Origin: a virus
Lineage: Duplodnaviria; Heunggongvirae; Uroviricota; Caudoviricetes
IMG/VR virus record: IMGVR_UViG_3300021430_000416
Coordinates: 18,435 to 82,434 of that record
DNA length: 64,000 bases
Reading direction: 5' to 3' (one strand)
The notes below the pieces were generated by a model. The model was not told where the DNA came from. It saw only the letters and a program-made list of their open reading frames with translations, and did not search any database. Positions within the stretch are counted from its first letter, which is position 1, and every line of letters starts with the position of its first letter. This document shows, piece by piece, positions 37,806 through 53,394 of this stretch. The position numbers and the translations under genes were made by a program.

Positions 37806-37883
37806 TGGTCAGGTGGTGAATGGTAACACAACTCGCGGTGTACACAAAGGGGTGAAAATGCAGGTTCGAATCCTGTCTTGACC
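37806..37883 (+). tRNA. tRNA-like gene (no encoded CCA); anticodon arm not confidently folded by eye
   Basis: 7-bp acceptor stem GGTCAGG/CTTGACC. U8. D-arm with the GG loop. Canonical T-arm GCAGG-TTCGAAT-CCTGT. Discriminator A. The central 30 nt do not form an obvious 5-bp/7-nt anticodon hairpin. Confidence 0.45.
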
Positions 37884-37901
37884 ACAATAAAAAAATAAAC
37901 C

Positions 37902-38207
37902 GTGGAAACAAAATTAGAGAATCCATTTTGGATTAACGGTGATTTCAAATGGTATCGTGATGAGAAAACTCAGAAGTTTCTTTCATCGGAAAACGATTTT
38001 AATTTACCGGCATTGAGTGGACTACATTGTTGTATTGTCATCAATGAAAAAGAGGGTGTGAAGGATTATGTTTTGTTGGATGAAAAACAAAACATTATTT
38101 GTGCGTATGATTACCCAAGTCAATTCCACGAATACGAAACAAAAATTAAGATGTTAAAGATTATCAAACATTATGATGACAGTGAAAAAAGAAATGACAT
38201 TCAATGA
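37902..38207 (+). CDS. hypothetical protein
   Basis: 101 aa ORF. Confidence 0.45.
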   Translation: METKLENPFWINGDFKWYRDEKTQKFLSSENDFNLPALSGLHCCIVINEKEGVKDYVLLDEKQNIICAYDYPSQFHEYETKIKMLKIIKHYDDSEKRNDIQ

Positions 38208-38472
38208 TTTCTGTTATAAAATCATGGATGGTATGTATGAACCAAGATTACCATTGGAAAGTCAATGTACGGGTTACAAACTCTTGAGACAAATGGTGAT
38301 TAAGGATATCACACCGGCAACAAAAGAAGAGTTTGATAGATGGAAGAATAACCCAACAACCGAGGAACTACTGTCAGCACCTGATATCAAGTACTTAACA
38401 TTTTTACACGAACTATCAAGACCAATTGTTAGAGAACATTGGGATAAAATAAAACAGTTGAAGATTGATTAA
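38173..38472 (+). CDS. hypothetical protein
   Basis: 99 aa ORF. Confidence 0.45.
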   Translation: MMTVKKEMTFNDFCYKIMDGMYEPRLPLESQCTGYKLLRQMVIKDITPATKEEFDRWKNNPTTEELLSAPDIKYLTFLHELSRPIVREHWDKIKQLKID

Positions 38473-38687
38473 TGCGGGAGTTTAAATTCTTACGTGGATA
38501 TACCGGTAGACTTGAACAAGGTATTGTGTGGGTACCATATATTATACGTGAGACGGAACCGGTTGTGATTGAAACAAACATGGATTTAAGAAGACCCATA
38601 AGTGCAAGGTATTATGGAGCAATCGACCCGGCAACAAATCACTTTCAAACATTTAGAGTAACAGAACGAGATGGAAGAGAATTATAG
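38472..38687 (+). CDS. FKFLRGY-family small protein
   Basis: N-terminus MREFKFLRGYTG. Confidence 0.5.
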   Translation: MREFKFLRGYTGRLEQGIVWVPYIIRETEPVVIETNMDLRRPISARYYGAIDPATNHFQTFRVTERDGREL

Positions 38688-38934
38688 AATCATAGTTGAT
38701 GCTACAATAAAGGACGGTAGGATTTACCTAAACCTACAACAACCAACCGAGGGTTACACTTCAATATTAACTATTGAGGAAATGAGACCATTACTTGCTG
38801 GTGCATTGGCAATGACAATAAGAGCATCACATGACGAAGGTAAGGCAATGAAAGAAACTATGGATTATTTGACAGAAGAATTTGTTAATACAGATTCTTT
38901 TTCCGACCTTCGAAAAAGAAAATTTGGTGAATAG
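38671..38934 (+). CDS. hypothetical protein
   Basis: 87 aa ORF. Confidence 0.45.
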   Translation: MEENYRIIVDATIKDGRIYLNLQQPTEGYTSILTIEEMRPLLAGALAMTIRASHDEGKAMKETMDYLTEEFVNTDSFSDLRKRKFGE

Positions 38935-38935
38935 T

Positions 38936-39319
38936 ATGAAAGCAATCATCGCAGTAAACAATCTTGGATTCATTGGAATCGGTAACAGAATGTTATGGAA
39001 GTCGCCTGAAGACTTCAAACACTTCAAGGAGAAAACCATGGGTGGAAGACTATTGGTTGGTTACAACACATCATTGGAACTACCACCATTAAAAGGTCGT
39101 GAGGTTGTTATTGATACCCGAGGTTATTGGAATCCCGGTGTTGAAGTAATTGATTGGTGTATCGGTGGAAAGAAAACCTATGAGAAGTATTGTCATATGT
39201 TTACCGAACTTCATATCTCACACATTGATGATAATTCAATTGGTGACGTAACATTCCCTGATTTATCAAAGTTAAATTCGGACTGTAAAATATATCATTA
39301 TTATTTTAAATCTATATGA
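38936..39319 (+). CDS. folA: dihydrofolate reductase (short form); start at the internal MKAIIAV
   Basis: IIAVNNLGFIGIGNRMLW..EDFKHFKEKTMGGRLLVGYNT...IGGKKTYEKY...GDVTFPD match the DHFR N-terminal substrate/NADPH blocks and the C-terminal GG motif. Confidence 0.7.
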   Translation: MKAIIAVNNLGFIGIGNRMLWKSPEDFKHFKEKTMGGRLLVGYNTSLELPPLKGREVVIDTRGYWNPGVEVIDWCIGGKKTYEKYCHMFTELHISHIDDNSIGDVTFPDLSKLNSDCKIYHYYFKSI

Positions 39320-40026
39320 TTTACATACAATCAAATAACGAGAAGACATTACCACATCACTTCGATTGTGCATGTGGTTTATATGGTGCAATGGATTTGG
39401 GGATGGATTACAGATTGACAACCTTTGATGAGGTGTTGTCAGGTAAGTTCGATACCCTAATCAAAAGAAACCTATTCATTGGTTCAGTTGAATTTATGAA
39501 TGAAGTATTTTCTCGTGTTGGAAAGAAAGTAAATGCAATAGAGAATACCACAAGACCTTTTCAAGTTACATCTTTGGGTGAAGCATTATTGAGAGGTAAA
39601 TCGGGTGAAAAAATATTCATCAAACCAAAAGAAATAAAACTATTTACGGGTTTTGTGTTGGATGGGTACAATTATCCATCAATAGAATCCCTTCCACAGG
39701 ACACAGAGGTGTTTGTTTATGATGCATTTGATAGGAGTATCTTATCGGAGTGGAGAATTTATGTTCATAAAGGTGAAATTATCGATGCAAGAAACTATGC
39801 CGGTGATGTAATGACACTTCCCGATATCAATTTCATCACCCATATAATCAACACATACGGTAAAGATTTACCGGTTGCGTACACAATCGATGTGGGTATA
39901 TTAACATACACACAAGAGAACGTAGTAATTGAATTTAATGATATGTGGGCGATTGGTAACTACGGTATACCAAATGACCTATACATAAAACTATTGAGGA
40001 GTAGATACGAACAAATAATGTCATGA
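39316..40026 (+). CDS. hypothetical protein, possibly ATP-grasp-like
   Basis: KIFIKPKEIKLFTGFV...WRIYVHKGEIIDA...IEFNDMW resembles the ATP-grasp central/C-terminal pattern. Weak. Confidence 0.45.
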   Translation: MIYIQSNNEKTLPHHFDCACGLYGAMDLGMDYRLTTFDEVLSGKFDTLIKRNLFIGSVEFMNEVFSRVGKKVNAIENTTRPFQVTSLGEALLRGKSGEKIFIKPKEIKLFTGFVLDGYNYPSIESLPQDTEVFVYDAFDRSILSEWRIYVHKGEIIDARNYAGDVMTLPDINFITHIINTYGKDLPVAYTIDVGILTYTQENVVIEFNDMWAIGNYGIPNDLYIKLLRSRYEQIMS

Positions 40027-40232
40027 GAGAATTCAAATTCTTGAGAGGATATGAAGAGAAAAGGGTGTTCCATATTGATGTTGGGAATTTGGATGGTGAT
40101 GTGGAATACTTTACGGAACAATTGAGGAGAGCAATGTCAATTCCCGCTGCATATTTTAGACGAGAAATGTTGAACGAACCATTACAAGTAACAGAGGATA
40201 TTTTTATACCAGTAAGAAACAATGAACTTTAG
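40023..40232 (+). CDS. FKFLRGY-family small protein
   Basis: N-terminus MREFKFLRGYEE. Confidence 0.5.
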   Translation: MREFKFLRGYEEKRVFHIDVGNLDGDVEYFTEQLRRAMSIPAAYFRREMLNEPLQVTEDIFIPVRNNEL

Positions 40233-40590
40233 AACAAGAAAATTAGTAAAGCACGGTGACCTAAACCCAAATGAGACATTGTTTGGTGGTAGGTTACTTG
40301 AATGGATTGACGAAGAAGTTGCAATCTATGTGATTTGTCAGTTAGGAACAAAGAGAGTGGTTACCAAAGTAATCTCCGAGATTAACTTCATGAAACCAGC
40401 AAGGTTAAATGATGTTGTTGAGATTGGTGTGGATGTGGTTGAGTTCGGGAGAACTTCAATAACAGTTGAGGTGGTTGCACGTATCAAAGATAGTAAGGAT
40501 GAAATCCTGAGAATAAATAAGATGGTGTTTGTTTGTGTTGATGAAAATGGAAAACCAACCCCACATGGAAAAACAAAGAAAACTCGTTAA
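40222..40590 (+). CDS. hotdog-fold acyl-CoA thioesterase (4HBT/YbgC-like)
   Basis: LFGGRLLEWIDEEVAIYV...VVTKVISEINFMKPARLNDVVEIGVDVVEFGRTSITVEV matches the 4HBT fold pattern. Confidence 0.6.
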   Translation: MNFRTRKLVKHGDLNPNETLFGGRLLEWIDEEVAIYVICQLGTKRVVTKVISEINFMKPARLNDVVEIGVDVVEFGRTSITVEVVARIKDSKDEILRINKMVFVCVDENGKPTPHGKTKKTR

Positions 40591-40593
40591 AAT

Positions 40594-40836
40594 ATGGAAT
40601 TGGATGGATTTGGAAAGAAAGTGTGGAAACATAAAACAAACAAAAGATTGTTTTTGGAGCAATCATATGTTTGGAAAGAAAGGTTAACCTTAATAGAAGA
40701 GTTTAAGGATGAAAGAAATGTTGTTATGACATTTGATATTAACACATTTGATTTCTCAGCATGGACACCGATGACCAAAGAAGAGTTTAATTCAGTTAAA
40801 TCACAATATAAAGAAATATATAATGGACAATTATAA
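40594..40836 (+). CDS. hypothetical protein
   Basis: 80 aa ORF. Confidence 0.4.
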   Translation: MELDGFGKKVWKHKTNKRLFLEQSYVWKERLTLIEEFKDERNVVMTFDINTFDFSAWTPMTKEEFNSVKSQYKEIYNGQL

Positions 40837-41218
40837 ATTAAGAGATAAGGTTACTTGTGGTCGTGGATATAACCACGGAGAAGTATTCACGGTTGTTGGA
40901 ATTCGTGAACATGAATTGGAGTTGGAGGGTGATTGGAGTGGTGGTACTCATAATGTTTCCCAGAAGGATTGGGTTCCAATCGATGACTGCAAACTTTACA
41001 AAAGAGAAAAGGTTGTTGGTGATTTAGTTTGGTTGGATGGATATACCAGCATGGCACAACAAAATGCTAGAGAATATACAATTGAAAAGATTGAACATAA
41101 GTTCGACAAGGACACCGGTGTGAAATTCCCAATATACTTTGTTGCTGACAAATGGTTTGATGGAAGAGATGGTAGTCCATATGAGGATGATAAATCTATG
41201 TATTATATAGAATTTTAA
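40823..41218 (+). CDS. hypothetical protein
   Basis: 131 aa ORF. Confidence 0.45.
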   Translation: MDNYKLRDKVTCGRGYNHGEVFTVVGIREHELELEGDWSGGTHNVSQKDWVPIDDCKLYKREKVVGDLVWLDGYTSMAQQNAREYTIEKIEHKFDKDTGVKFPIYFVADKWFDGRDGSPYEDDKSMYYIEF

Positions 41219-41222
41219 TAAG

Positions 41223-41807
41223 ATGGGACAAAAAGGGATATTAGAAAAAAAGGATGACAAGTGGATGGTTAAATGGTCCGACTTACATTCTTTTGCACAT
41301 GGTACGCATTGGATGTACACGGAACTTTCACCGGAGTCAGATTCAATAAAGTATATTGATATGGGAGATATTATATGTAAACCATTGGAAGAGGGATTGA
41401 ATGTTGATTTCGAACTTCAGACCTTGGGTTATGATACCGAGAGTTTTGTTCCAACCAATATTGCTAAACTAGTATTCCCTGAAGTTGAAGAGTTTGAAAA
41501 ACAACAATGGATAAAAGAATATGTTATTAAAGGTAATCTTTTATTCTCAATAAGTGATGTCTCGGTAATGCGTGACGGTGGTACTATTATACTTTACAAC
41601 AGAGGTGCAAAACAAAAACCGTTCTATATCCATAAAGATAATTGGACATTACACAATGATTACCCAACAACCGATGATAACTTGGTAACAGATAAATCTG
41701 TACAAGTTTATGTTATGGATAGGTTGGGGAGGTATAAAGAGGATTGTGAATTTAATTTGAAAGAGATAAGAACCATTATTGAAAAAGTGAAAATATGCAA
41801 ATACTAA
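41223..41807 (+). CDS. hypothetical protein
   Basis: 194 aa ORF. Confidence 0.5.
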   Translation: MGQKGILEKKDDKWMVKWSDLHSFAHGTHWMYTELSPESDSIKYIDMGDIICKPLEEGLNVDFELQTLGYDTESFVPTNIAKLVFPEVEEFEKQQWIKEYVIKGNLLFSISDVSVMRDGGTIILYNRGAKQKPFYIHKDNWTLHNDYPTTDDNLVTDKSVQVYVMDRLGRYKEDCEFNLKEIRTIIEKVKICKY

Positions 41808-41971
41808 ATTTTTTAATCGTAGCAATATTCAATTTATATTGGTACTTTAAGGGTCCTGAGAATTATAAGAGACTATACAACGGTGGTTATTCCACATGGT
41901 TGAGTGCACTATTTTGGTTGTATGCGATATGGGGTGTGGTTAATTTATTCTACTCAATATTAACTCTATAA
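41795..41971 (+). CDS. small membrane protein (58 aa, below the ORF-track cutoff)
   Basis: MQILNFLIVAIFNLYWYF...WLSALFWLYAIWGVVNLFYSILTL. Two TM helices. Confidence 0.35.
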   Translation: MQILNFLIVAIFNLYWYFKGPENYKRLYNGGYSTWLSALFWLYAIWGVVNLFYSILTL

Positions 41972-42066
41972 TATGGTTGAAATTGCAAATGCGTTAGGGA
42001 TACTAGCTATCGGTGCGGCCATTTGGGGTCTTTATAAACTGTACAAAATAGAAAAGGAGATAAAAG

Positions 42067-42375
42067 ATGAAGAAATATAGATTCAAAATACAAAAATATA
42101 CCTTGAATAATGGTAGAATATACTATATTTGTAGGGTAAAGATTTTCCATCCATTTGTTTTGACTAGTGATGGGGTTGGTTTGTGGTTGAGAAACTACAC
42201 CGATAATGAGAGGAATCTCAATAAATACGGTGGTTCGTATTGGAATGAAGACAATGATGTGAAGTTTAAAAGTAGACAAGAAGTTTTGGATGGTATTGAA
42301 CTTTATATGAAAAACCGAGAAGATGAGGACGGTGATGAAATCAAATCAATTGAAACCGAAATAATTTGGAGGTAA
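42067..42375 (+). CDS. hypothetical protein
   Basis: 102 aa ORF. Confidence 0.45.
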   Translation: MKKYRFKIQKYTLNNGRIYYICRVKIFHPFVLTSDGVGLWLRNYTDNERNLNKYGGSYWNEDNDVKFKSRQEVLDGIELYMKNREDEDGDEIKSIETEIIWR

Positions 42376-42424
42376 TTGGATATACCATGATGATATCTCA
42401 CCCTTAAATAGATTAATTGGTAAA

Positions 42425-43906
42425 ATGAATCTTAAAGAAGAAAAATATAGAAAAAGAAAGAATTTCAGAACTAAGGAGGAATGTCACCAATACGCTCTGA
42501 AATATAAATCTATTAAAGAATTTATTGAGGGTGATGGTCATGTTTATTTATATGCTTCACGTAGAGGATGGTCACATGAGATAACATCTCATATGAGAAA
42601 AAATATCCGTTGGGTTGATAAAAAAGACGAGATTCGCCAAGCAGCATTAAAATATCAAAATAGAGGAGAATTTTGTTTAAAAGATGGAAGGTACTATGAA
42701 GTTGCTAGACGACGTGGTTGGCTTGATGATATTTGTGGTCACATGGTTTCGGTGGGTAATAAATTTAAAAGATTGGTGTATGTTTATGAATTTGAGGATA
42801 AAACGGTTTATGTTGGTTTAACATTAAATGACATAAAAAGAAGTCATTCACATAGTACATCAAACGATAGTCCGGTATATAGATATCAACAAGAAAAGGG
42901 TTTAAAACCTGTAAAAAAGATAGTAACCGATGGTTATATTGATTCAGAAGAGGCTAAGAAAGTTGAACACGATACTGTTGAGAAATATAAAAAATTGGGT
43001 TGGAATGTTCTAAATAAAACCAAAACGGGTGGATTAGGTGGGACAGATAGAATTTGGACAGATGAAAAAATAAAGGAAACAATATCTAAATACACGTATG
43101 AGAGTGAAGTAAGAAAGAATGAACCTAAATTGATAATGAAATTACGTAATATAGGTAAGATTGACGAATATTTAGGTGTTTTGATTAAAGATACTCCAAT
43201 TTATTGGAATGAAGAAAAGGTTAAGAAGGTAATTTCGGAACACACACATCTATTGGATTTTAATAATCAATATCCCGGTGCTAGAGCATGGATTCGGGTT
43301 AACAAAATGGAACATTTGTTGGATGGTTTGATTAGTAAAAATCGAGTAAGGCAAGTAAAGATTAGATGGAACAACAAAGAGGAAATTTTGAACATGGCAT
43401 CAAAGTATGATAACATCAGTAAGTTCCAAAAAGAAAACAGGGGGATGTATAATTCCGCCAAACAAAACGGTTGGTTAGATGATATAAAAAGGATTATACC
43501 ACCAAAGTTTTTATGGACAAAAGAAAAGGCCATGGAGGTTACAAAGAGATATACGGATTACCAATCGTTTAGGGTTGAGAATAAGAATGTATATGATGCG
43601 ATTAAGAAATATGGGTGGGACGAATGTTTAACTCACTTAAAAAGAACATTTAAAGAATTTTCATATGAATTGGTTAAAGAGGAGGCATTAAAATATAAAT
43701 GTAGAAATGATTTTTTTAATGGTTCCAACAACGCTTACGCATATGCGAATAGACATAATATTTTAGATGAGATAACAACTCACATGGAAAAAAGGAACGT
43801 AAAAGGACATAAAGAAGAAATTTTTACATGTAGTGTATGTGGTAAAAATGTGGGTGGTTATACCAATCTTAAAAGATGGCACGAAGATAATTGTAAATCA
43901 AAATAA
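42425..43906 (+). CDS. large tandem-repeat protein with a central GIY-YIG/T5orf172-like nuclease motif
   Basis: Central RLVYVYEFEDKTVYVGLTLNDIKRSHSH, flanked by at least 8 copies of a ~35-45 aa repeat (ALKYxxxxEFxxxxxxxYxxAxxxGWxDxIxxHM). Confidence 0.6.
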   Translation: MNLKEEKYRKRKNFRTKEECHQYALKYKSIKEFIEGDGHVYLYASRRGWSHEITSHMRKNIRWVDKKDEIRQAALKYQNRGEFCLKDGRYYEVARRRGWLDDICGHMVSVGNKFKRLVYVYEFEDKTVYVGLTLNDIKRSHSHSTSNDSPVYRYQQEKGLKPVKKIVTDGYIDSEEAKKVEHDTVEKYKKLGWNVLNKTKTGGLGGTDRIWTDEKIKETISKYTYESEVRKNEPKLIMKLRNIGKIDEYLGVLIKDTPIYWNEEKVKKVISEHTHLLDFNNQYPGARAWIRVNKMEHLLDGLISKNRVRQVKIRWNNKEEILNMASKYDNISKFQKENRGMYNSAKQNGWLDDIKRIIPPKFLWTKEKAMEVTKRYTDYQSFRVENKNVYDAIKKYGWDECLTHLKRTFKEFSYELVKEEALKYKCRNDFFNGSNNAYAYANRHNILDEITTHMEKRNVKGHKEEIFTCSVCGKNVGGYTNLKRWHEDNCKSK

Positions 43907-43924
43907 TGAAAATACATTTATAAT

Positions 43925-44194
43925 ATGAAAACTAATGAAGAAATAATTCAGCATTTAGAACCCTACATTAGAATGAAGGGTGAGGAATTGAGGACCAAGG
44001 TAACCATTGATAAGGTTACGAACCTATTTGAGGAGTATCTATGTGTCATGGTTGACATAAAATCCTCTTGGGTTGGTGTAAATGGAATCAACAACCGGGA
44101 TGTCACCATTAAGAGATTCCTAAAAAGAAATGGATTTACATATCATTCAATTGATTCCACATACAGGAGACCGTTTAATTATGAGAACATTTAA
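43925..44194 (+). CDS. hypothetical protein
   Basis: 89 aa ORF. Confidence 0.4.
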   Translation: MKTNEEIIQHLEPYIRMKGEELRTKVTIDKVTNLFEEYLCVMVDIKSSWVGVNGINNRDVTIKRFLKRNGFTYHSIDSTYRRPFNYENI

Positions 44195-44411
44195 TTATCC
44201 CGTTCCCGCATCGTTCTATGTAAAGAATGGTGGGAATATAATGGATAAGGTAATATTAACCACACCGGACATAACCGGTGCAAATCATCATATAAAGAAC
44301 CGAATCGGTGGGGATGGTTCTATTCTAAATCTCATTAATAAGGAAAACCCCGAAAATGAGACAAAGGTTCATATTGATATGTGTTGGGTAATTGCGGAGG
44401 TAAATCTCTAA
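44181..44411 (+). CDS. hypothetical protein (start chosen at MRTFNYP, overlapping the upstream stop)
   Basis: Alternative to the longer overlapping 44130 ORF. Confidence 0.35.
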   Translation: MRTFNYPVPASFYVKNGGNIMDKVILTTPDITGANHHIKNRIGGDGSILNLINKENPENETKVHIDMCWVIAEVNL

Positions 44412-44432
44412 AAAAACCATATATATGGATTC

Positions 44433-46505
44433 GTGATTTTAAAGAAAATAAATAACATGCCACGTAAATTAACATATGAATTATGTAAAGAAATAATCTC
44501 CCAATATAAAACCTATACGGATTTATATAAAAATGATGTTTCAGTTATAATGAAAGTGAAACAAAAAAAATGGGATGAGTTATTATCACACTTCGGACCA
44601 ATATATTCGAATAAAAATCCGAAGTGGACATATGAAAAGTGTAAAGAAGAGGTTTCAAAGTTTACTCACCTTAGTGAATTACAGGGGACAAGTGTGTCAC
44701 ACGCATTATTAAGAGAGGGTTGGTATGATGAGTTAACATCTCATCTTATTAGGGTACAACATAAAACATATACTAAAGAGGAAGTTTTAAATGAATCCAT
44801 AAAGTATAAAACAAGAGATAATTTTAGAGTGGGTTCTCCCAGTGCATATAATGCGGCAAAGAGATTAAACATTATGTTAGAGGCAACAAAACATATGGGT
44901 AAATCTCCAAATGAAAAACAATACACAAAAGAAGAAATATTAGAATCAGCTAAAAGATATGGAAACCAAAGGGATTGGAAAAATTCTGAAAGGTCAATTT
45001 TTAATTCTGCAAAGACTTACGATAAACCAAATGGTAAAGAAAGAGAATTTTGGTTGCAGTGTATAAGTCACATGGAGTATATATACAAACCTAACGGGTT
45101 TTGGACATATGAAAAGTGTGCGGAGATATCTAAAAAATTTAAAACTCTTAAAGAATTTAGGGAAGATTTAGAATTTAGAGTGGTTTACAGAAAAATAAAG
45201 GTTAATAAATGGGATGAATTATTATCTCATTTAGTATATCTCAATAAACCAAAAGGATTTTGGACATATGAAAGATGTAAGGAGTATGCTTTAAAGTATA
45301 CGTACCTTTCGGATTTTTATAATGAATGTGGTGCGGCATTAACTAAAATAAGAAAAAATAAATGGGATGAGTTAATTTCACATCTTAAACATAAATCAAG
45401 CAATCAAAACAGATACATATATGCGTTTGAATTTCCTGATAACCATGTATATGTTGGTTTAACATATAATTTGGAAAAGAGATTATCTGACCATTTAACA
45501 TCTAAAAGAGTAAAATCACCTGTTTTAATCCACAAGGAAAAGACGGGTTTGGATTTTGTTTACAAGAAAGTATATGAAGAAAAGTTCCATAAGGATATTG
45601 CGGGTAACATGGAAGGTCAAGCGATAAAACATTACCAAAAGAACGGTTGGATTTTATTGAACAAATCAAAGGCTGGTGGATTGGGTGGTGATAAAATGAA
45701 GTGGACCCACGAAAAAATACAACAGGAACTAATAGGTATAAAAACATTGACTGAAGTTAGAAAAAAACTACCTACACATGTTTTCAATGTTATCAGGAAA
45801 AAGGGTTGGTGGGATGAGTTTATCGCACCTCTTATTGATGATACTGGTAGAACTAAGTGGACGGTAGAATTGGCGATAGAGGAGATAAAGAAATATAAAA
45901 CAAGAAGAGAGATTCAACTCAATGCCAATGGTTTATATAAATTTCTTTACGCTAATGACTTATTAAAACACATACCCACTGTTAATTCATGGGCCCACAC
46001 GATAAAGGTAAAAGACATGTTCACCAAAGACGAGGTTTATGAATTTTTTCTACAGTTTAATTCGGGTGAAGAGGCTCGCAAAATTAATCATTCGTATTAT
46101 ACATGTGCCAAAGAAAATGGTTGGTTAAAAGACATTACCCGTTTATTAAAAGAAAAAAGGGGACCGGTTAGAATTAAAAAAAGAAACAATAAACTATTAA
46201 CGATATACACTAAAGAAATGTGTATTGAACGTGCATTGAATTATAAACATAAGATTGATTTTCAAATAGAAAACTCGGCAATGTACTCAGCGTGTAAGAG
46301 ATACGGGTGGTGGGAAGATGTTACAAAACACATGGTAAAAAAACCAAACAGGGTTGAGACTTATACATATGAGAAGGTTAGGGAATTAAGTAAAGGGTTT
46401 AAACATAGGAGTGAATTCCAAAAAAAACTACCGGGTGCGTTTAAATTTGTAAAAAAACACCAATTAATGGATGAATTATTCCCAATAAAATTTCGTAAAA
46501 TATAA
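44433..46505 (+). CDS. large tandem-repeat protein with a central GIY-YIG/T5orf172-like nuclease motif (paralog of 42425..43906)
   Basis: Central NRYIYAFEFPDNHVYVGLTYNLEKRLSDHL, with about 11 repeats of WTYEKCKE...KWDELLSHL / GWWEDVTKHM type. Confidence 0.6.
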   Translation: MILKKINNMPRKLTYELCKEIISQYKTYTDLYKNDVSVIMKVKQKKWDELLSHFGPIYSNKNPKWTYEKCKEEVSKFTHLSELQGTSVSHALLREGWYDELTSHLIRVQHKTYTKEEVLNESIKYKTRDNFRVGSPSAYNAAKRLNIMLEATKHMGKSPNEKQYTKEEILESAKRYGNQRDWKNSERSIFNSAKTYDKPNGKEREFWLQCISHMEYIYKPNGFWTYEKCAEISKKFKTLKEFREDLEFRVVYRKIKVNKWDELLSHLVYLNKPKGFWTYERCKEYALKYTYLSDFYNECGAALTKIRKNKWDELISHLKHKSSNQNRYIYAFEFPDNHVYVGLTYNLEKRLSDHLTSKRVKSPVLIHKEKTGLDFVYKKVYEEKFHKDIAGNMEGQAIKHYQKNGWILLNKSKAGGLGGDKMKWTHEKIQQELIGIKTLTEVRKKLPTHVFNVIRKKGWWDEFIAPLIDDTGRTKWTVELAIEEIKKYKTRREIQLNANGLYKFLYANDLLKHIPTVNSWAHTIKVKDMFTKDEVYEFFLQFNSGEEARKINHSYYTCAKENGWLKDITRLLKEKRGPVRIKKRNNKLLTIYTKEMCIERALNYKHKIDFQIENSAMYSACKRYGWWEDVTKHMVKKPNRVETYTYEKVRELSKGFKHRSEFQKKLPGAFKFVKKHQLMDELFPIKFRKI

Positions 46506-46511
46506 AAACAA

Positions 46512-46697
46512 ATGAGTAGAAGAACATATATTACTAAGTCAGAGTTAAATAAGGTGATGAAGTACCTCAAGGATAATACATTAATAACCGAAGTGGAAAA
46601 TGAGGTAATGACATTGAGGTTGTTGGATATTGATATAGAGGAGGTTTCACCCAGTCTAATGTCTAAAAACCATATATATAACATCGCGTGGGAATAA
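46512..46697 (+). CDS. hypothetical protein
   Basis: 61 aa ORF. Confidence 0.35.
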   Translation: MSRRTYITKSELNKVMKYLKDNTLITEVENEVMTLRLLDIDIEEVSPSLMSKNHIYNIAWE

Positions 46698-46720
46698 ACT
46701 AAATAATAATACTTCAACTA

Positions 46721-47059
46721 ATGAAATTAAAAACATTCATAGAAGAACTAAGGAATACAGATTTATATATCCAACACATATACACACAAGGAGGATGTTA
46801 TAAATTCTATATATTATTATCAAAGATGTATAAGAACTGCACCCCATATATATCCCAACATAAAAACCATATAATAACAAGGTACAAAAATAAGTACTAT
46901 GATATAAATGGAGAAGTAACAAACTTGGATGGATATACCCTATTAACCATAGAGGAAAAGTTAATGGTAGAAAGATGGTCATTCCATAAGAATAACCTAT
47001 TACAGTTAACAGAATGTCCGGTATGTGAAGAACCCATAGTATATGAGATAAACAAATGA
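46721..47059 (+). CDS. hypothetical protein (C-terminal CPVCEE)
   Basis: 112 aa ORF. Confidence 0.45.
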   Translation: MKLKTFIEELRNTDLYIQHIYTQGGCYKFYILLSKMYKNCTPYISQHKNHIITRYKNKYYDINGEVTNLDGYTLLTIEEKLMVERWSFHKNNLLQLTECPVCEEPIVYEINK

Positions 47060-47346
47060 TGGATGGTTTCAGATTATTAAGAGGGTATAATGTAAAAACC
47101 GCATATAATAATGGTTTAAAAGTAACCCTATATGAAGTTGGAAACAATAAGATGAATCTAACATTATCCTATTATGGTTTACCTAATCTATATGAAAGGA
47201 AAGATGTAATTGATATGGTAGGAACATTCAGGGAATATGAAATGTATGCAGATTTGATTGTAAGGATGCACAAACTAAATCCTGAAATGGGTCATTGGGA
47301 AATAAGACTTTATATGGAAGAACTATTCGATAATTTTGTAACATGA
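47056..47346 (+). CDS. FKFLRGY-family small protein (variant FRLLRGY)
   Basis: N-terminus MMDGFRLLRGYNV. Confidence 0.5.
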   Translation: MMDGFRLLRGYNVKTAYNNGLKVTLYEVGNNKMNLTLSYYGLPNLYERKDVIDMVGTFREYEMYADLIVRMHKLNPEMGHWEIRLYMEELFDNFVT

Positions 47347-47627
47347 TAGAATTTAAATTCCTAAGAGGTAACTTAAAGACGACATCACACTATGGAGATT
47401 ATACCCTGACATTGGAAACATTGGATGATAATTTACTCTTCATTGAGGTGACTCACAATAATGGAAATGAGTCCGCACTCATGTCCGAGATTATAGAAAT
47501 GGAGTATGATTATAAAGACTACTTGGAGTCAGGTAGAAACGCAATGGAGTACTTTAGTGAAGTTCCTGTAATGAGATTAAGGGAGAGAATGAGAAGGATA
47601 ATCAGTGCGACGTTTACGATAATGTAG
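47343..47627 (+). CDS. FKFLRGY-family small protein
   Basis: N-terminus MIEFKFLRGNLK. Confidence 0.5.
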   Translation: MIEFKFLRGNLKTTSHYGDYTLTLETLDDNLLFIEVTHNNGNESALMSEIIEMEYDYKDYLESGRNAMEYFSEVPVMRLRERMRRIISATFTIM

Positions 47628-47863
47628 GATGTAATACAAAAATAACCCCTAAAAAAACCCCGTTTTTAATAGTACTATAAAGACATTTTTTGTCGTAAGG
47701 ATTTTTTCCACCGGAAAGTAGTCGTATCCACAAAAAATCCATCTGGTCGTATTACAATCCACAAATACCCACTTTTTACCACTTAGTGACCTAGATACGA
47801 GGGATTGACCCTTTCGTGAAGTAACGGTTATATTTTTATATTTTTCAGAAAACAGTACCAAAT

Positions 47864-47897
47864 AAAAAACCCCGAGTGTTATACTCAGGGTCATTTT
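47864..47897. terminator. bidirectional rho-independent terminator at the strand-switch point
   Basis: AAAAAACCCCGAGTG-ttata-CTCAGGGTCATTTT: a hairpin flanked by an A-run and a T-run, lying between the convergent gene blocks. Confidence 0.5.
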
Positions 47898-47920
47898 ATA
47901 TATACATATATGTAATACAG

Positions 47921-48658
47921 TTAATCGAAAACGTAGATGTCTATGTCCTGTTTTTTAAATTTAGGTTTCAGTTCATCTGCGATGCGAACCACTAAATGAT
48001 GCGGAAAGTTTTCATCTTCGTGAGAAATTCCATCTATACTTTTCACTGTGGTTTCTATTTCGGGGTGAATGGTTGCGGGATTAAAAATGTTCCCATACCC
48101 ACCTCTCGGTGTTAGTTTTATTTTAGGGTCGTCAGATAGTTCATATTTCATTCCCCCTACTGTACCATTTTTAAGTAAGGTGTAATACACCATGGACTTT
48201 TTCTTTCTCGACTTTAACATGGTGGTCATATCATCGGTCAGGTTCAGAGTTGCGGTCTTAGGTATTACAAGAGAGTACTGAGACTTCAGGATACTAGACA
48301 CCGGTGGTAAATCATATTTCAAACGATTATATATCTCACGAGGTAATACACTGATACCTTCAACCTTTAAACCCGATTCGTGTTCCACCGTAAAATAGTT
48401 AACGGATATGGAAACCGATTCCAAGTCTGTGGTGTACCCTGCATTAAGAATCATCTCTGCAACGGTCCCGTAGAATATGTTAAATGTATCGGGGGTAAGT
48501 TCTCTCAATATAAGATGAAATTCGAAAATAACATACTTTTCTTTATCCACAACACTAACGTTAGTAACTTTAAATCTTTCGTTGTCTATGGTATAGAGGG
48601 TATCAATTAACTTATCCCAACTCTGTTCTTCGTTCAGTGTGTTCAATAATTTAATCAT
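47921..48658 (-). CDS. hypothetical protein
   Basis: 245 aa ORF, the first gene of the minus-strand block. Confidence 0.55.
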   Translation of the reverse strand: MIKLLNTLNEEQSWDKLIDTLYTIDNERFKVTNVSVVDKEKYVIFEFHLILRELTPDTFNIFYGTVAEMILNAGYTTDLESVSISVNYFTVEHESGLKVEGISVLPREIYNRLKYDLPPVSSILKSQYSLVIPKTATLNLTDDMTTMLKSRKKKSMVYYTLLKNGTVGGMKYELSDDPKIKLTPRGGYGNIFNPATIHPEIETTVKSIDGISHEDENFPHHLVVRIADELKPKFKKQDIDIYVFD

Positions 48659-48967
48659 CTTCTGTTCTCTAAGTTATTAAGACGGTCATGCGTCTTTCTG
48701 TTTATTCTTGCTTGGACTGATATGGTTACAAACTGCACCATTATAATTCCTAATAATATTACGTACATCATATATGATAAATATTCTTGCCAAACAATAT
48801 TGACCATCTCCTGTCCCGTCGATTCCCGCCAAACAAATTCCGGATTCGTCCTCCTCCCCGGGTCATCTGTCATACGCCAAACAAATTCCGGATTCTGGGA
48901 TACAGGTGAAAAAAAAATCCCATGATTTGTGGTCACGGGATTTGTTGCTAGAATCCAGAGGTCCGAA

Positions 48968-49240
48968 CTACGCTTTGTTCAAAAGACTCTTACGGAACTC
49001 GAACGCTTTCTTCTTAGATGAGAAGTTAGCTGAATGTTTAGTCCCGTTAACACTAGCACGTACACGGTATGAATAACCGTCGAAATAGATGTGATGAGAT
49101 ACCGGTTCGTATGTACTTACCGACTCTTTCTTAACAGTCAACTTCGCTGTTGCTTTCTTAGTACTTCCACCTTTCTTGGTGGTCGTAGGTTTAGCTGCAG
49201 GTTTGCTAGCTGGTTTCTTTGTGGTTTTCTTAGTTGCCAT
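48968..49240 (-). CDS. lysine-rich small DNA-binding-like protein (AP2-like C-terminus?)
   Basis: N-terminal KKTTKKPASKPAAKPTTTKKGGSTKK tail. C-terminal YRVRASVNGTKHSANFSSKKKAFEFRK is reminiscent of an AP2/integrase-type DNA-binding fold. Confidence 0.5.
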   Translation of the reverse strand: MATKKTTKKPASKPAAKPTTTKKGGSTKKATAKLTVKKESVSTYEPVSHHIYFDGYSYRVRASVNGTKHSANFSSKKKAFEFRKSLLNKA

Positions 49241-49488
49241 AATTAAATTTATTTGATATTCAAAATATAACCAAAAATTTCCACATTACCAAATCACCGA
49301 TGCAAAATATGTAAAAGAACTGGCCAAACAATATTCAGGGTCACCTGTCCCGTCGATTCGATTCTTGCCAAACAAATTCCAGAGTCCCTGTCTTCAGGAT
49401 GGGTCATCGACCGTGTATACCTGATAGAAGAGATGTTCAGGAGACCGAATCCCCTGAACACCACATGTGTTATTACTGTACCGAAGAG

Positions 49489-49932
49489 TTAGTAAGAGTT
49501 GAAGACATCCAAGTCACGAATACCCATTTCTTTCCTACTCTCCATTGCAACCTCCTGTAGGAATTCAACTAGAGTCTCACCCATGTCAGTTCCGTAGAAG
49601 ACCAATGTAGTTTTATATTGTTCTGAAGTACTCACCGAGATGATAGATAATCCGAAGAGTCTCATCCAAAGAGGTTCGTCCATCATTACGGATTTAATCC
49701 TGAAGTAGTTTACGGTCCTGCGGGAAACGTCAAATACTCCCTTCACCTCCACGACGTAGTCATCATAGAACTCGTACCTCCAACACATAATCTCCAAGTA
49801 CTTGTATCCGTATACTAAGAGACCACCGATTCCGGCGTATGGATGTACAAAGAATAATCCTACAGCTAAGATTAGCCAACCAATATTCAACCACTGAGAT
49901 GGTGAAGCTACGTGTTCAGGTTTCGTACTCAT
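49489..49932 (-). CDS. membrane protein with a bacterial PH (bPH_2/DUF304-like) domain
   Basis: Two TM helices, then YEFYDDYVVEVKGVFDVSRRTVNYFRIKSV. Confidence 0.5.
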   Translation of the reverse strand: MSTKPEHVASPSQWLNIGWLILAVGLFFVHPYAGIGGLLVYGYKYLEIMCWRYEFYDDYVVEVKGVFDVSRRTVNYFRIKSVMMDEPLWMRLFGLSIISVSTSEQYKTTLVFYGTDMGETLVEFLQEVAMESRKEMGIRDLDVFNSY

Positions 49933-49939
49933 ATCAATA

Positions 49940-50230
49940 TTATTTAGTTACCACATTACTATTGGAGATTTGTTTTATTGATGCACTTGTGGATGTCATC
50001 ACTGGTATTTGATAGAACATCACCGAGTCCACTAAGTGTGGTTTGGTTTCGTTACCAAATAAACCTTTGGTCCACATCCTGTGAATCATGTTTCCTGTTT
50101 CATTGTTCAAGAAGTAAACGTGTTTACCATTTACTGTTCTTTTTGCCACAGGTGAAACTTGGACACAAGTCTGGGTGCTTGAACACCCAGACATAATACC
50201 TACTACTAAGATTAAAATATATTTTTTCAT
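49940..50230 (-). CDS. lipoprotein
   Basis: Signal peptide IMSGCSST. Confidence 0.5.
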   Translation of the reverse strand: MKKYILILVVGIMSGCSSTQTCVQVSPVAKRTVNGKHVYFLNNETGNMIHRMWTKGLFGNETKPHLVDSVMFYQIPVMTSTSASIKQISNSNVVTK

Positions 50231-50232
50231 TG

Positions 50233-50805
50233 TTACAAATTTACGGGGTCTTTATAAAATTCAAAATCAATTGTTTCTTCTTCCTCCACACCGAAGTCGA
50301 TACAGAATCCAACCACGGTATCATCATCACTTGTAAGAACGAACAGTTGGTAAGAACCATCTCCGAATCCTGAAGAAGAAACCATACCCTCGTCATACGA
50401 ACCCCATCGTAATACACCAAGAGTTCGTTGACACATTTTCATGTACCATCCATCACCTTCTTCTTCTCTACCGTAATAAAAGTCCGCTTCACCTTTTTCA
50501 ATCGGGTGATTGTCGTTCCTGTATGACGCCATTGAGAAGATACCCGCTTGACCCGAGTCAACACCGACAGTTCCCCCGTGTTCAACCCATTCCAAGGATA
50601 ATTCATCTTCCTTACCCACATATGCTTCGTGGATACACATCAACATGGATGTACGATTACCCCAATCACCACAGTCGTGTTTCTTGACGAATGGTTCGTA
50701 ATAACCCGGTAAAACATTGTTGACAATAACTTGGCACCATGTCGGGATGGTGTAACAAGGGTCAGATACTACGACCTCTGTTCCTAATTTGATTTTTTGT
50801 GACAT
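50233..50805 (-). CDS. hypothetical protein
   Basis: 190 aa ORF. Confidence 0.55.
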   Translation of the reverse strand: MSQKIKLGTEVVVSDPCYTIPTWCQVIVNNVLPGYYEPFVKKHDCGDWGNRTSMLMCIHEAYVGKEDELSLEWVEHGGTVGVDSGQAGIFSMASYRNDNHPIEKGEADFYYGREEEGDGWYMKMCQRTLGVLRWGSYDEGMVSSSGFGDGSYQLFVLTSDDDTVVGFCIDFGVEEEETIDFEFYKDPVNL

Positions 50806-50899
50806 ATACTTGTTCGATTTAAAGTTGTTTCGAAATTAGTGAATCCGCTGGAATATTCCAAATAATATTATGATATAATTGCCAAACAATATCCGGAGT

Positions 50900-51385
50900 C
50901 TACTTCCTGAAGGTCGACTTGAAGACCCTGATGTTTTCCTCTATCTCAGCATCCATGGCCTGAATCAACTTGGTCTTAGCTCGTTCCATGAATTCTTCGT
51001 TGCCAAACAATATTTCAAGGTTACCATCTGCCTCGGGATGAAACTCAATCTTCTTGACAATTACACGTACATCTTTAGACTTCTTATCCTTCCTATAGAA
51101 TGGAGTCCTTGCGTAGATGTATTCACGTACCTGAGATAACTTGATATCCTCTAGGTTCTCACGTATACGCATTTGCATTATGATTTCTTCAAGAGCTGCA
51201 AGTTGTTCGAAAGTACTTTTGTTTTTGGTAACCATTCCTTTATAAACGTTTACCATGTCAGTTAACTCCTTAGAGTTGACCACTTCACTACCTTGGTTAA
51301 GGAATTGGTCATAACCACTTACCTCACTCGGTGACCCAACGATGTCGATGAATACACCTTCAATTGTTTTATTTACTCGTCCCAT
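50900..51385 (-). CDS. hypothetical protein
   Basis: 161 aa ORF. Confidence 0.5.
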   Translation of the reverse strand: MGRVNKTIEGVFIDIVGSPSEVSGYDQFLNQGSEVVNSKELTDMVNVYKGMVTKNKSTFEQLAALEEIIMQMRIRENLEDIKLSQVREYIYARTPFYRKDKKSKDVRVIVKKIEFHPEADGNLEILFGNEEFMERAKTKLIQAMDAEIEENIRVFKSTFRK

Positions 51386-51386
51386 T

Positions 51387-51647
51387 TTAAAATTGATTCA
51401 AAAAATTCTTTATGCCAAACAAAATTGAGGGCTTGGCTTCCTCCTGAGTCTTCTTCTCTCTCTCGAATTCCTGTTTGTACAATGCTGCGTCCTCTGCTTT
51501 AATTCTCTCCTCGATGGTTTTAGCGTGAAATTTACCCGACACTACAACATTGAATTCTTTTTTCAATGAGTCTACCCACTCGTGATATGAAAGTTTCACA
51601 TCAGGATACACAGTGGTTCTTGGTTTAGGTTCTTGAGTCTGTATCAT
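51387..51647 (-). CDS. hypothetical protein
   Basis: 86 aa ORF, translationally coupled to the upstream gene. A GCCAAACAA box lies inside its 3' end. Confidence 0.45.
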   Translation of the reverse strand: MIQTQEPKPRTTVYPDVKLSYHEWVDSLKKEFNVVVSGKFHAKTIEERIKAEDAALYKQEFEREKKTQEEAKPSILFGIKNFLNQF

Positions 51648-51652
51648 ATGTC

Positions 51653-52258
51653 TTATTTTTCAGATAAACTTGTTTCGTACATTTGTTTGATTTCGTTATA
51701 GTCTTCCTCATCAACAAAGTTAAACTTCTCAATGAAATCATCAAGTGATATATCATCATCAATTGCGTATTGAATATCACTTTCGACCTCATACCAAAAC
51801 GCCTCGTTGTCCAAATGATATTTCCCCTCAAGGAAACTATAATCCTCCTCGACCAAATTTTCATTCTCTATTGTGGTTCTACCACAGAAATCACAACCAG
51901 GTTCCTCATATTGAAGTTCCACATTCACACCATACTTCTCGTGTAACCTCACACCGAAACCGATTGGTGGCGACCACGCTGTTTGGGGACTCATAGTGAT
52001 GGTGTTCTCACTGAACTCGAATTGACATTCATTGTATGACACATCCCACTTCGTTCCAAACCATCCGATATTGGCGTTATACCATCCACCTTTGTTATAT
52101 TCTTCTTCACCAATTTCAGGTTCACGACCGATTAGGGTTTCAAAGACATTTGCGTTATCTCTTTCTTCCTGTGGGATACCTTCCAACACACGAGTTAGTA
52201 ACCCGATGGTTTTAGGGTCACCAGTTATTGTTATATAATTTGAACACCAGTTTGGCAT
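51653..52258 (-). CDS. hypothetical protein (MPNWCSNYITI N-terminus, DUF1281/Api92-like?)
   Basis: 201 aa ORF. The N-terminal MPNWCxN motif recurs in a plasmid/phage protein family. Confidence 0.55.
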   Translation of the reverse strand: MPNWCSNYITITGDPKTIGLLTRVLEGIPQEERDNANVFETLIGREPEIGEEEYNKGGWYNANIGWFGTKWDVSYNECQFEFSENTITMSPQTAWSPPIGFGVRLHEKYGVNVELQYEEPGCDFCGRTTIENENLVEEDYSFLEGKYHLDNEAFWYEVESDIQYAIDDDISLDDFIEKFNFVDEEDYNEIKQMYETSLSEK

Positions 52259-52280
52259 AATCTTGTTATTTAATTTATTT

Positions 52281-52359
52281 GTAGTCGGGATAGGACTCGA
52301 ACCTATATTAAGATGCCCTTATGGACTTACACTTTTCCTATTCCATTAGAAGACCCGAC
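52281..52359 (-). tRNA. tRNA-like gene embedded between the promoter and the start codon of the downstream gene; anticodon arm not canonical by eye
   Basis: On the minus strand: GGTCGGG acceptor, U8, D-arm TTCT/AGGA with the AATGGAAT loop, T-arm ATAGG-TTCGAGT-CCTAT, acceptor 3' CCCGACT, discriminator A, no CCA. It lies immediately after a TATCTTTG -7 box. Confidence 0.45.
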
Positions 52360-52967: not shown

Positions 52968-53055
52968 AATAGTATTTTGTTTTTTTGTTGATACAAAGAT
53001 ATAACTGTTTTTTCTTTTTACAAAATTTATTTTGCCAAACAAATTGTGGGTCTTC

Positions 53056-53394
53056 TTACCCCTGTAGGATTTTGAAGTAGTCAACTCCTTTTGCAATTAG
53101 GTCTTCTGCACGTTTCAATCGTTTTGCATCATTCCAAATATTATATGAAGACCTTTCAGGTTCAACACCCAAGTCCAACATTGAAAAAAGATGTTCCCAT
53201 TTACCACCAACGTAAAGTTCACCCGTAAATCTTTCGACTGCATTGTAACTTTCGTAGGTCATTTTTAATTTAACACCTCGAACAACATCAGATTGTTGAA
53301 CGATGCACACATCGTGTGATTTTTCTTTCTTGTGGTGTTCACTTCTGTAGATTTGTTTTACCTTTACCATATCTTGATTGATTTGTTGATACAA
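53056..53394 (-). CDS. hypothetical protein
   Basis: 112 aa. Canonical -33/-7 promoter plus box upstream. Confidence 0.5.
   Translation of the reverse strand: MYQQINQDMVKVKQIYRSEHHKKEKSHDVCIVQQSDVVRGVKLKMTYESYNAVERFTGELYVGGKWEHLFSMLDLGVEPERSSYNIWNDAKRLKRAEDLIAKGVDYFKILQG

Follow-up and report, generated by a model that had tools for sequence, protein, structure and literature searches.

Phage tRNA genes are usually taken to be codon supplements or spares against tRNA-cleaving defences, and phage tRNAs with altered anticodon loops have been described that escape such defences (PMC10264068, PMC11464382, PMC11555353). Phage T4 also encodes two RNAs known as rnaC and rnaD (species 1 and 2 RNAs), the function of both of which is still unresolved (PMC9697503). 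Plant mitochondrial t-elements are tRNA-like, are cut by RNase P and RNase Z to set RNA ends, and are neither aminoacylated nor decoding (PMC1920247), and bacterial leucyl-tRNA synthetase (LeuRS) still charges a minimal tRNA-Leu that lacks both the anticodon arm and the variable arm (PMC9976931). Here, we analysed two tRNA-like elements, E1 and E2, in a 64,000-nt stretch of a Caudoviricetes virus (positions 18,435 to 82,434 of IMG/VR record IMGVR_UViG_3300021430_000416; the whole stretch is referred to as the window). Judged from their sequences, E1 and E2 are divergent members of a large, phage-specific family derived from tRNA-Leu, in which the anticodon arm and variable region have been replaced by other hairpins.

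The MALAT1 mascRNA and the herpesvirus TMERs are tRNA-like processing signals in longer transcripts as well. E1 and E2 would share with these and with the t-elements a tRNA-like structure that lies in a longer transcript, is cut by RNase P and RNase Z and does not decode, but the known examples are eukaryotic or organellar and isolated cases, whereas the phage elements form a multi-copy family with one chassis and selected centres. In the engineered 'tRNA scaffold' for expressing structured RNAs, reportedly introduced by Ponchon and Dardel in 2007, a structured RNA likewise stands in the place of the anticodon arm and the tRNA body gives processing and stability; the scaffold is, however, man-made and based on tRNA-Lys or tRNA-Met, and to regard the phage centres as its cargo is an analogy only. 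The minimal tRNA-Leu substrates of LeuRS resemble the family in A73, in the D-loop/T-loop elbow and in A15-U48, and the D arm of the family is of the tRNA-Leu type, but those substrates are laboratory constructs rather than natural genes, and the D arms of E1 and E2 diverge from the family consensus. The defence-escaping tRNAs are, like the elements, phage-encoded genes of tRNA type with an anticodon region departing from that of the host; this departure has arisen under pressure from anticodon nucleases. They decode, however, through 7-nt loops with defined anticodons, whereas an anticodon loop is absent from E1, E2 and the majority of the family. The nearest natural analogues, although not family members, are rnaC and rnaD of T4. 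These are likewise non-coding RNAs, small and stable, located beside phage tRNA genes; rnaC closes with a T arm of tRNA type (CCGGGTTCGAATCCCGG) and a 3′ end resembling an acceptor, whereas its interior is long and unlike a tRNA, and it has no anticodon. This likeness is architectural only, as the family covariance model R2 (see below) gave 21.8 bits on part of rnaC and no match on rnaD; both T4 RNAs are single-copy, are 119-139 nt long, come from an enterobacterial phage and lack the tRNA-Leu D arm. To our knowledge, no hypervariable multi-copy family exists for rnaC or rnaD.

The two elements and their parts are located in the window as follows.

37807-37884, plus strand: E1, tRNA-like element of 78 nt
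37807-37813 / 37877-37883, plus strand: acceptor stem of E1
37816-37829, plus strand: D arm of E1
37830-37855, plus strand: centre module of E1, AACTCGCGGTGTACACAAAGGGGTGA, 26 nt in place of the anticodon arm
37838-37845, plus strand: 8-nt palindrome GTGTACAC in the centre of E1
37860-37876, plus strand: T arm of E1
37884, plus strand: discriminator A of E1
52360-52282, minus strand: E2, tRNA-like element of 79 nt
52360-52354 / 52289-52283, minus strand: acceptor stem of E2
about 52351-52336, minus strand: D arm of E2
52335-52307, minus strand: centre of E2 in place of the anticodon arm, predicted to fold as an interrupted helix with the hairpin GTCC[ATAA]GGGC (52326-52315)
52306-52290, minus strand: T arm of E2
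52282, minus strand: discriminator A of E2

Both elements had been recognised in the original prediction, at coordinates one base to the left of those given here, and the palindrome reported there for E1, TGTACA, is in fact the longer GTGTACAC. The scaffold described in that prediction agrees with the sequence and the folds. E1 reads GGTCAGG-T-G-GTGAATGGTAACAC-AACTCGCGGTGTACACAAAGGGGTGA-AAAT-GCAGGTTCGAATCCTGT-CTTGACC-A, and E2 reads GGTCGGG-T-C-TTCTAATGGAATAGGAA-(centre)-TAAT-ATAGGTTCGAGTCCTAT-CCCGACT-A. Both have a 7-bp acceptor stem with one wobble pair (G6.U67 in E1, G1.U72 in E2), U8, GG in the D loop, a 5-bp T stem closing a TTCGAAT or TTCGAGT loop, and a discriminator A, with no CCA encoded. 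The acceptor and T arms appeared in the unconstrained minimum-free-energy folds of both. The features that a processing signal would need are present in both: the acceptor and T arms can stack as a coaxial helix, CCA is not encoded, and the discriminator is followed by C and then A or T. A 5-bp/7-nt anticodon arm with U33, anticodon and purine 37 is absent from both E1 and E2, and the best folds obtained for the centres were a 3-4-bp stem with a 6-nt loop or GTCC[ATAA]GGGC. The D arms, GGTGAATGGTAACAC in E1 and CTTCTAATGGAATAGGAA in E2, both retain AATGG and diverge elsewhere from the family sequence GGCGGAAT(T)GGTAGACGC.

As had been proposed from manual folding, no canonical anticodon arm was recovered by tRNA finders either. 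ARAGORN with default settings called neither element. The Rfam tRNA model (RF00005; gathering score 29 bits) gave E1 41.1 bits, above its threshold, only with the 15-nt core of the arm replaced by a 23-nt local end, and gave E2 14.9 bits (E=1.4) with the arm replaced by a 19-nt local end. When introns were allowed and the threshold was lowered to 90%, ARAGORN called both tRNA-Leu(aag), with inserts of 8 nt (E1) and 7 nt (E2) at positions 30/31 and 32/33, respectively, versus the canonical 37/38, and the restored loop of E1 lacks U33. The same inconsistency runs through the family: among 145 elements, default ARAGORN recognised 42, with anticodons scattered over many amino acids or undefined, and 104 were recognised with introns allowed, at intron positions ranging from 28 to 41. 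A few members (L148, L163, L099 and L116) resemble real tRNA-Leu(taa). Ordinary tRNAs were thus ruled out, as default ARAGORN was silent and Rfam scoring bypassed the anticodon arm, and short-intron tRNAs were ruled out by the non-canonical and inconsistent insert positions in E1, E2 and the 145 relatives. Because no anticodon or intron position is consistent, and because the centres carry tetraloops rather than 7-nt loops, the evidence favours E1 and E2 being tRNA-shaped genes that would be unable to read codons; of the two possibilities raised originally, odd but genuine tRNAs and tRNA-like mimics or signals, the second is the one favoured. The refuting condition set in the original prediction did not refute it, in that the finders used here did not fold the elements as ordinary tRNAs, whereas E1 exceeds the Rfam tRNA threshold and both lie far above noise with the family model (see below).

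Two other classes of tRNA-related RNA were considered. Transfer-messenger RNA (tmRNA) was ruled out, as ARAGORN found none in the window, the 3-70 pair is U-A in both elements (versus G3.U70 in the tRNA-Ala-like end of tmRNA), and 78-79 nt leaves no room for a tag frame. Bacterial Y RNA (YrlA), the partner of Ro60/Rsr, was ruled out as well: YrlA has its termini in the Ro-binding stem and an Rsr gene nearby, whereas the termini of E1 and E2 are at the acceptor stem, no Rfam Y-RNA match was obtained, and no TROVE domain (Rsr) was found among the approximately 60 open reading frames (ORFs) of the window that were compared with Pfam.

The family, for which we coin the name TLE (phage tRNA-Leu-like element), was collected with two search patterns. 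The first, AAGGG...WAAT..AGGTTCGARTCCT.T, was built from features common to E1 and E2 and matched 12 viral contigs, all carrying a 72-nt element in the same frame. In these elements, the anticodon arm is a 5-7-bp stem with a GAAA tetraloop (GGCTC[GAAA]GGGCC), a TATATTTG box lies 7 nt upstream in most of the 12 contigs, and E1 aligns to them with a 10-nt insertion within the tetraloop. The second pattern, comprising the T arm and the 3′ acceptor strand only, matched at least 119 viral contigs, frequently at several places in one contig, and a metagenome scan added 23 contigs. In total, 216 distinct elements were collected from viral contigs, metagenome contigs and contigs of metagenome-assembled genomes (MAGs).

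The elements share the scaffold AGTCAGG-T-GGCGGAAT(T)GGTAGACGC ... TACAGGTTCGAATCCTGT-CCTGACT-A. The strongly conserved 5′ half corresponds to a bacterial tRNA-Leu D arm, and BLAST matched it to tRNA-Leu genes annotated in many phages. Also conserved across the family are U48, the T arm and A73, the last being present in approximately 90% of aligned members. No GenBank phage carried both halves of the scaffold, the 5′ half alone matching tRNA-Leu genes. A host origin of the scaffold was ruled out, as the 3′ majority sequence was found in just 20 of 185,579 species genomes, in every case on a MAG contig, mostly of Chitinophagia, Sediminibacterium, Flavobacterium, Saprospirales and other Bacteroidota.

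Whether E1 and E2 belong to the family was assessed with a covariance model, R2, built from 66 elements of other contigs, the window being excluded. Over the whole window, the R2 score was 54.3 bits for E1 (E=2e-11) and 52.1 bits for E2 (E=7.6e-11), both far above noise. The next match reached 16 bits, and no further copy was found in the window. With the family models (R1 and R2), members scored 45-79 bits, versus at most 40 bits for canonical tRNAs on the same contigs, among them the tRNA-Leu(taa) of those contigs at 32-34 bits, and at most 28 bits for T4 tRNAs. The scaffold helices also covary, in line with the covariation analysis of homologous loci suggested at the outset: 97.2% of cells are paired, seven pairs are changed on both sides, and none of 500 shuffles reached the observed values. 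Double changes in the acceptor stem include CAGG/CCTG, CCTG/CAGG, CAAG/CTTG and CGGG/CCCG. Neither the viral contigs nor the metagenome scan contained close orthologues of E1 or E2, except for two elements that share the centre of E1. The family appears to be undescribed, in that a literature search found no description of it, which is not proof of absence.

In contrast to the scaffold, the centres are hypervariable, ranging continuously from approximately 15 to more than 140 nt with no common sequence. When folded under scaffold constraints, they form hairpins with loops mostly of 4-6 nt, usually capped by GNRA-type tetraloops, GAAA being the commonest, and some members carry an extra hairpin in the D loop or additional T-loop hairpins in the centre. 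The 26-nt centre of E1 was found at 26/26 identity in L177:254-330, on a Saprospiraceae MAG contig, and in L214:4294-4374, on a metagenome contig, both on the AGTCAGG scaffold and flanked by unrelated genes. The D arms of the three centre-sharing elements differ (GGTGAATGGTAACAC in E1, and GGCAGATTGGTATGC and GGCGGAATTGGAAAAAGC in the others), those of the L177 and L214 elements being intermediate between the D arm of E1 and the consensus. Sixteen other clusters of related centres kept their loop sequences, several of them with compensatory changes in the stem, such as GTCCA/TGGAC to GCCCA/TGGGC, TTGAA/TTCAA to GAGCAA/TTGCTC and CCC/GGG to CCG/CGG. The identity of the E1 centre next to differing D arms, together with the compensatory changes elsewhere, indicates that these centres are under selection. 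For the centre of E2, no relative was found in any fetched locus.

Two properties of the E1 loop may be mentioned here. Its palindrome GUGUACAC could pair with itself, with a predicted 8-bp duplex of -13 kcal/mol, which we regard as a lead only. The stretch GCGGTGT (37836-37842) is complementary to ACACCGC, which we take to be the universally conserved segment of 16S rRNA at approximately 1396-1402 (the 1392R primer site); because a 7-mer match is at chance level, pairing of the loop (GCGGUGU) with 16S rRNA is not claimed.

Across the family, the elements lie on the coding strand, within clusters of tRNA genes and stretches of small ORFs, on contigs that reach 476 kb. The densest array was found in L192:1-6100 (metagenome contig JACCDY010195119.1), where at least 13 elements within 6 kb alternate with ORFs of 48-95 aa in the order stop codon, 3-6 nt, element, 15 nt, ATG. 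Dense arrays are also present in L206 (seven elements) and L210 (five in 1.5 kb), with very small ORFs or G+C-rich non-coding spacers in between. Among the 129 elements with enough flanking sequence, 44 have an ORF start 12-32 nt downstream. A conserved downstream gene family was ruled out, as the downstream ORFs do not cluster. Because these ORFs are unrelated, and because the closest syntenic locus (L122) has homologues of the neighbours of E2 but no element, we regard the element as a generic, movable intergenic unit rather than the regulator of one gene. None of 35 viral loci with a homologue of the DUF1281 gene downstream of E2 has an upstream element. The synteny search found no relatives of the gene upstream of E1, and the cultured phages gave no DNA or protein match to the neighbourhood of either element. 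A hairpin, GCTCGGAAAGACGAGC, followed by AA.AT recurs directly 5′ of many elements (for example, in L103:4297-4318, L138, L092:1927-1948, L067:5619-5640, L074 and L195), and may be a processing or termination signal.

The following features of the window bear on the surroundings of E1 and E2 and on the genes for tRNA- and RNA-related enzymes.

52378-52371, minus strand: TATCTTTG, -7 promoter-type box 10 nt upstream of E2
52417-52378, minus strand: terminator-like hairpin, 18-pair stem followed by a T run, which would end the transcript of the upstream gene
52258-51653, minus strand: DUF1281_C gene of 201 aa (Pfam PF18406, 1.2e-10), ATG 23 nt past E2
52994-53001, 53392-53399, 54067-54074 and 55815-55822, minus strand: exact copies of TATCTTTG upstream of start codons
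56792-56799, 58593-58600, 59784-59791 and 60062-60069, minus strand: exact copies of TATCTTTG upstream of start codons
1703-2542, plus strand: Thg1-family gene (Pfam PF04446, 4e-27; PHROG tRNA-His guanylyltransferase, 1.5e-83), context only
3872-4891, plus strand: RNA ligase gene (Pfam PF21189 and PF09414), context only

E2 does lie between a -7 box and the ATG of gene 51653..52258, as originally described. At least eight further minus-strand ATGs, located between 52.9 and 60.1 kb, are preceded by the octamer TATCTTTG at a distance of 20-26 nt, and the octamer therefore behaves like a promoter box of the phage. The motif TANNTTTG occurs 119 times in comparison with 90 expected, and none of 100 shuffles reached 119. 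These data point to TATCTTTG being a Bacteroidota-type -7 promoter box and to a block of individually promoted genes. As TATCTTTG recurs 20-26 nt before ATGs, E2 looks like an insertion of approximately 80 nt in an ordinary promoter-to-ATG spacer. E1 is located between two plus-strand ORFs and has no TATCTTTG box close by. The Thg1 and RNA ligase genes named in the original prediction were both found. The Thg1 family comprises 3′-5′ nucleotidyl transferases acting on the 5′ ends of tRNAs, and homologues of the RNA ligase, 59-68% identical, are present in the element-bearing contigs L155 and L157. The CCA-adding-family gene also named there was not found among the approximately 60 ORFs compared with Pfam, approximately 10 of which were also compared with PHROGs, and the proposed link between the elements and a CCA-adding enzyme of the phage is thus unsupported.

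RNase P, RNase Z and the CCA-adding enzyme read the acceptor/T-arm helix and the elbow rather than the anticodon arm. The parts that give a tRNA its L shape and its maturation (7-bp acceptor stem, U8, G18G19 of the D loop, U48, T arm and A73) are retained in the family, and the hairpins that replace the anticodon arm and variable region, often with GNRA-type caps, can present no anticodon; excision and maturation of the elements should therefore proceed as for tRNAs, and the products should be stable. In the explanation that we prefer, with moderate confidence, E1 and E2 are stable, non-decoding RNAs built on a tRNA chassis, with the inserted module as the working end. The elements would be transcribed together with adjacent genes, E2 from its own TATCTTTG promoter as the first approximately 90 nt of the DUF1281 mRNA and E1 within a plus-strand operon. 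Excision would then fall to RNase P and RNase Z of the host, which in the case of E2 would leave an mRNA with a 23-nt leader, and CCA would be supplied by the host or another enzyme. Stable small RNAs of L shape would build up in this way, and it would be their centre, not an anticodon, that binds a partner.

A more far-reaching version of this explanation, which we put forward as a tentative possibility, is a natural 'tRNA-chassis' system in which the tRNA-Leu body is present in many copies per genome, each carrying a different selected module as effector. Host tRNA-maturation enzymes would release the elements, LeuRS would possibly charge them, and the modules would act on factors of the host or of rivals, either like aptamers or by pairing; E1 would represent a conserved type, with its 8-nt palindromic loop serving in dimerisation or specific docking. 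As the family consensus keeps the LeuRS identity set, and as LeuRS requires neither the anticodon nor the variable arm, many family members may be leucylated. E2 has A73, A14, A15, U48 and GG, and E1 has A73, GG and U48 with no clear A15; because their D arms diverge, charging of E1 and E2 themselves is doubtful.

Several points weigh against the preferred explanation. That the elements are transcribed, cut by RNase P and RNase Z, given a CCA end, stable and active in trans is in each case a step that we infer beyond the DNA sequence. The D arms of E1 and E2 deviate from the tRNA-Leu consensus of the family, and the centre of E2 is without relatives. The search pattern prescribed a large part of the scaffold's 3′ half, whose sequence conservation is therefore partly due to ascertainment; the pattern has no bearing on the 5′ half, the covariation or the model-based matches. 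For none of the centres was a target found, and in the window the longest antisense match was 10 nt, as in shuffled sequences. Finally, the tight packing of the elements with ORFs is equally well compatible with a purely cis-acting role in processing.

This last point leads to the strongest of the alternatives, in which the elements are cis-acting processing signals (tRNA punctuation), the RNase P and RNase Z cuts splitting polycistronic transcripts into individual mRNAs, each with a short leader of defined length, and the released piece being a by-product. We consider this rather unlikely, notwithstanding several observations that suit it. The alternation of elements and 48-95-aa ORFs in L192, and the third of the elements followed by an ORF start within 12-32 nt, are the arrangement to be expected of punctuation, as is the distance of 23 nt from the end of E2 to the ATG, which matches the usual 20-26 nt from box to ATG. 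Independence of RNase P and RNase Z from the anticodon arm, which is general knowledge, would explain a free-running centre. The plant mitochondrial t-elements provide a precedent (PMC1920247). The centres, however, do not behave like spacers: that of E1 stays identical over 26 nt beside a drifting D arm, and in other centres the loops are kept by compensatory stem changes. Furthermore, E2 and the GAAA-capped relatives of E1 (L036-L047) directly follow their own promoter, which leaves no cistron in front of them to be split off. Some elements stand in runs with no ORFs in between, and the position of the element is not conserved beside homologous genes.

In the second alternative, the elements would be decoys or sponges directed by the scaffold, in which the tRNA-Leu body binds a tRNA-recognising factor and the tetraloop arm can be neither cut nor used for decoding; candidates for the factor are a tRNA-cleaving or tRNA-modifying defence enzyme or, after leucylation, LeuRS or EF-Tu. 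The consensus carries the LeuRS identity set of A73 (in approximately 90% of aligned members), A14, A15-U48, G18G19, A20a and the T-loop contacts (PMC9976931), and charging of tRNA-Leu variants without anticodon and variable arms by LeuRS is documented (PMC9976931). Defence nucleases that cut the anticodon arm, and phage tRNAs that evade them, have also been reported (PMC10264068, PMC11464382, PMC13056530), and many copies per genome, some of them self-promoted, would suit titration. We nevertheless regard this reading as unlikely, since an inert cap leaves the long multi-hairpin centres and the invariant E1 centre with its 14-nt loop unexplained, approximately 10% of members have G73, an anti-determinant for LeuRS (PMC9976931), and charging of both E1 and E2 is doubtful, given that A15 is not clear in E1 and that the D stem of E2 diverges. 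In Bacteroidota hosts, we know of no defence target for such a decoy.

It is quite improbable that the elements are decaying pseudogenes or chance look-alikes, or DNA repeats serving recombination or targeting by homing endonucleases. The window is rich in homing endonuclease genes, the site of T4 SegB contains a tRNA T-arm motif (PMC2330249), and the conserved halves of the elements are direct repeats that could drive the shuffling of cassettes. All acceptor and T-stem pairs are, however, intact in E1 and E2, as are 97% of cells family-wide, with double compensatory changes, which argues for selection on an RNA helix rather than on DNA sequence. Leave-out E-values of approximately 1e-11 speak against chance or decay, and decay should strike scaffold and centre alike, whereas the scaffold is intact. 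The least probable reading, genuine decoding tRNAs such as tRNA-Leu(AAG) with 14-15-nt anticodon loops or 7-8-nt introns, has in its favour the tRNA-Leu(aag) calls of ARAGORN, the few tRNA-Leu(taa)-like members and the RNA ligase encoded in the window, but is contradicted by the insert positions and the missing U33 of the restored E1 loop, by the scatter of anticodons and intron positions over 145 elements, by the plain GAAA tetraloop on a 5-7-bp stem in the closest relatives of E1, and by the finding of no splicing endonuclease among the ORFs scanned.

The elements are likely to contaminate the tRNA counts published for large Bacteroidota phages and the arguments on codon usage made for them, because tRNA finders either miss the family or assign arbitrary anticodons (42 of 145 elements called). 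Returning to the explanation of stable, non-decoding RNAs on a tRNA chassis, if the elements are expressed and processed, it becomes testable what cells do with L-shaped, possibly leucylated RNAs that do not decode, and whether the tRNA body serves phages as a carrier that stabilises other RNA modules; such results would also bear on the purpose of the 50-year-old type of RNA represented by T4 rnaC and rnaD. The more far-reaching version with many effector modules, if true, would add a new class of small-RNA effectors in phages and would give the engineered tRNA scaffolds a counterpart in nature. The conserved chassis and the E1 module provide concrete constructs for experiments.

The window also contains an ORF-free region of 766 bp (33548-34313) with a G+C content of 45-49%, compared with 35% for the window. 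The sole default call of ARAGORN in the window lies within it, a 92-nt 'tRNA-Ser(cga)' (33625-33716) whose D stem has 2 bp and for which no Rfam tRNA match was obtained even at E<5, and no Rfam family matched 33548-34313. The region looks like one or more structured RNAs without an Rfam match. Directly after the 3′ end of a tRNA or tRNA-like sequence, a composite non-coding unit (33720-33864) is conserved in seven contigs, the others being represented by L039:2944-3030, L058:1634-1796, L085, L105, L119:5828-5985 and L067:3054-3198. It consists of a hairpin (33720-33740) with a covarying 6-bp stem and the invariant 9-nt loop AGTAATTAA, a T-loop hairpin (33744-33761) with a covarying stem and the loop GTTCGAAA, and a second kind of tRNA-like module (33765-33864) with the acceptor TTGGTTA/TAATCAA. 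The segments 33867-33952 and 34039-34262 are 74-78% identical to L112:2492-2828, which lies between tRNA-like elements in that contig, and this match suggests a conserved RNA of several hundred nucleotides that may accompany the elements.

Elsewhere in the 64 kb, four genes of the homing-endonuclease type were found (958-1725, 14348-15175, 42425-43906 and 44457-46505; three GIY-YIG and one LAGLIDADG), and long parts of the two large GIY-YIG proteins (493 and 682 aa) are unannotated. A cluster for NAD and nucleotide salvage (9445-10947, 13435-14358, 15329-15808 and 16918-17373) comprises an NAPRTase-family protein, a weak phosphoribosyltransferase match, a NADAR domain protein and a nucleoside 2-deoxyribosyltransferase-like protein. 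The ORF at 12061-13431 (456 aa), which matched neither Pfam nor PHROGs, encodes the largest unannotated protein near the tRNA-related genes.

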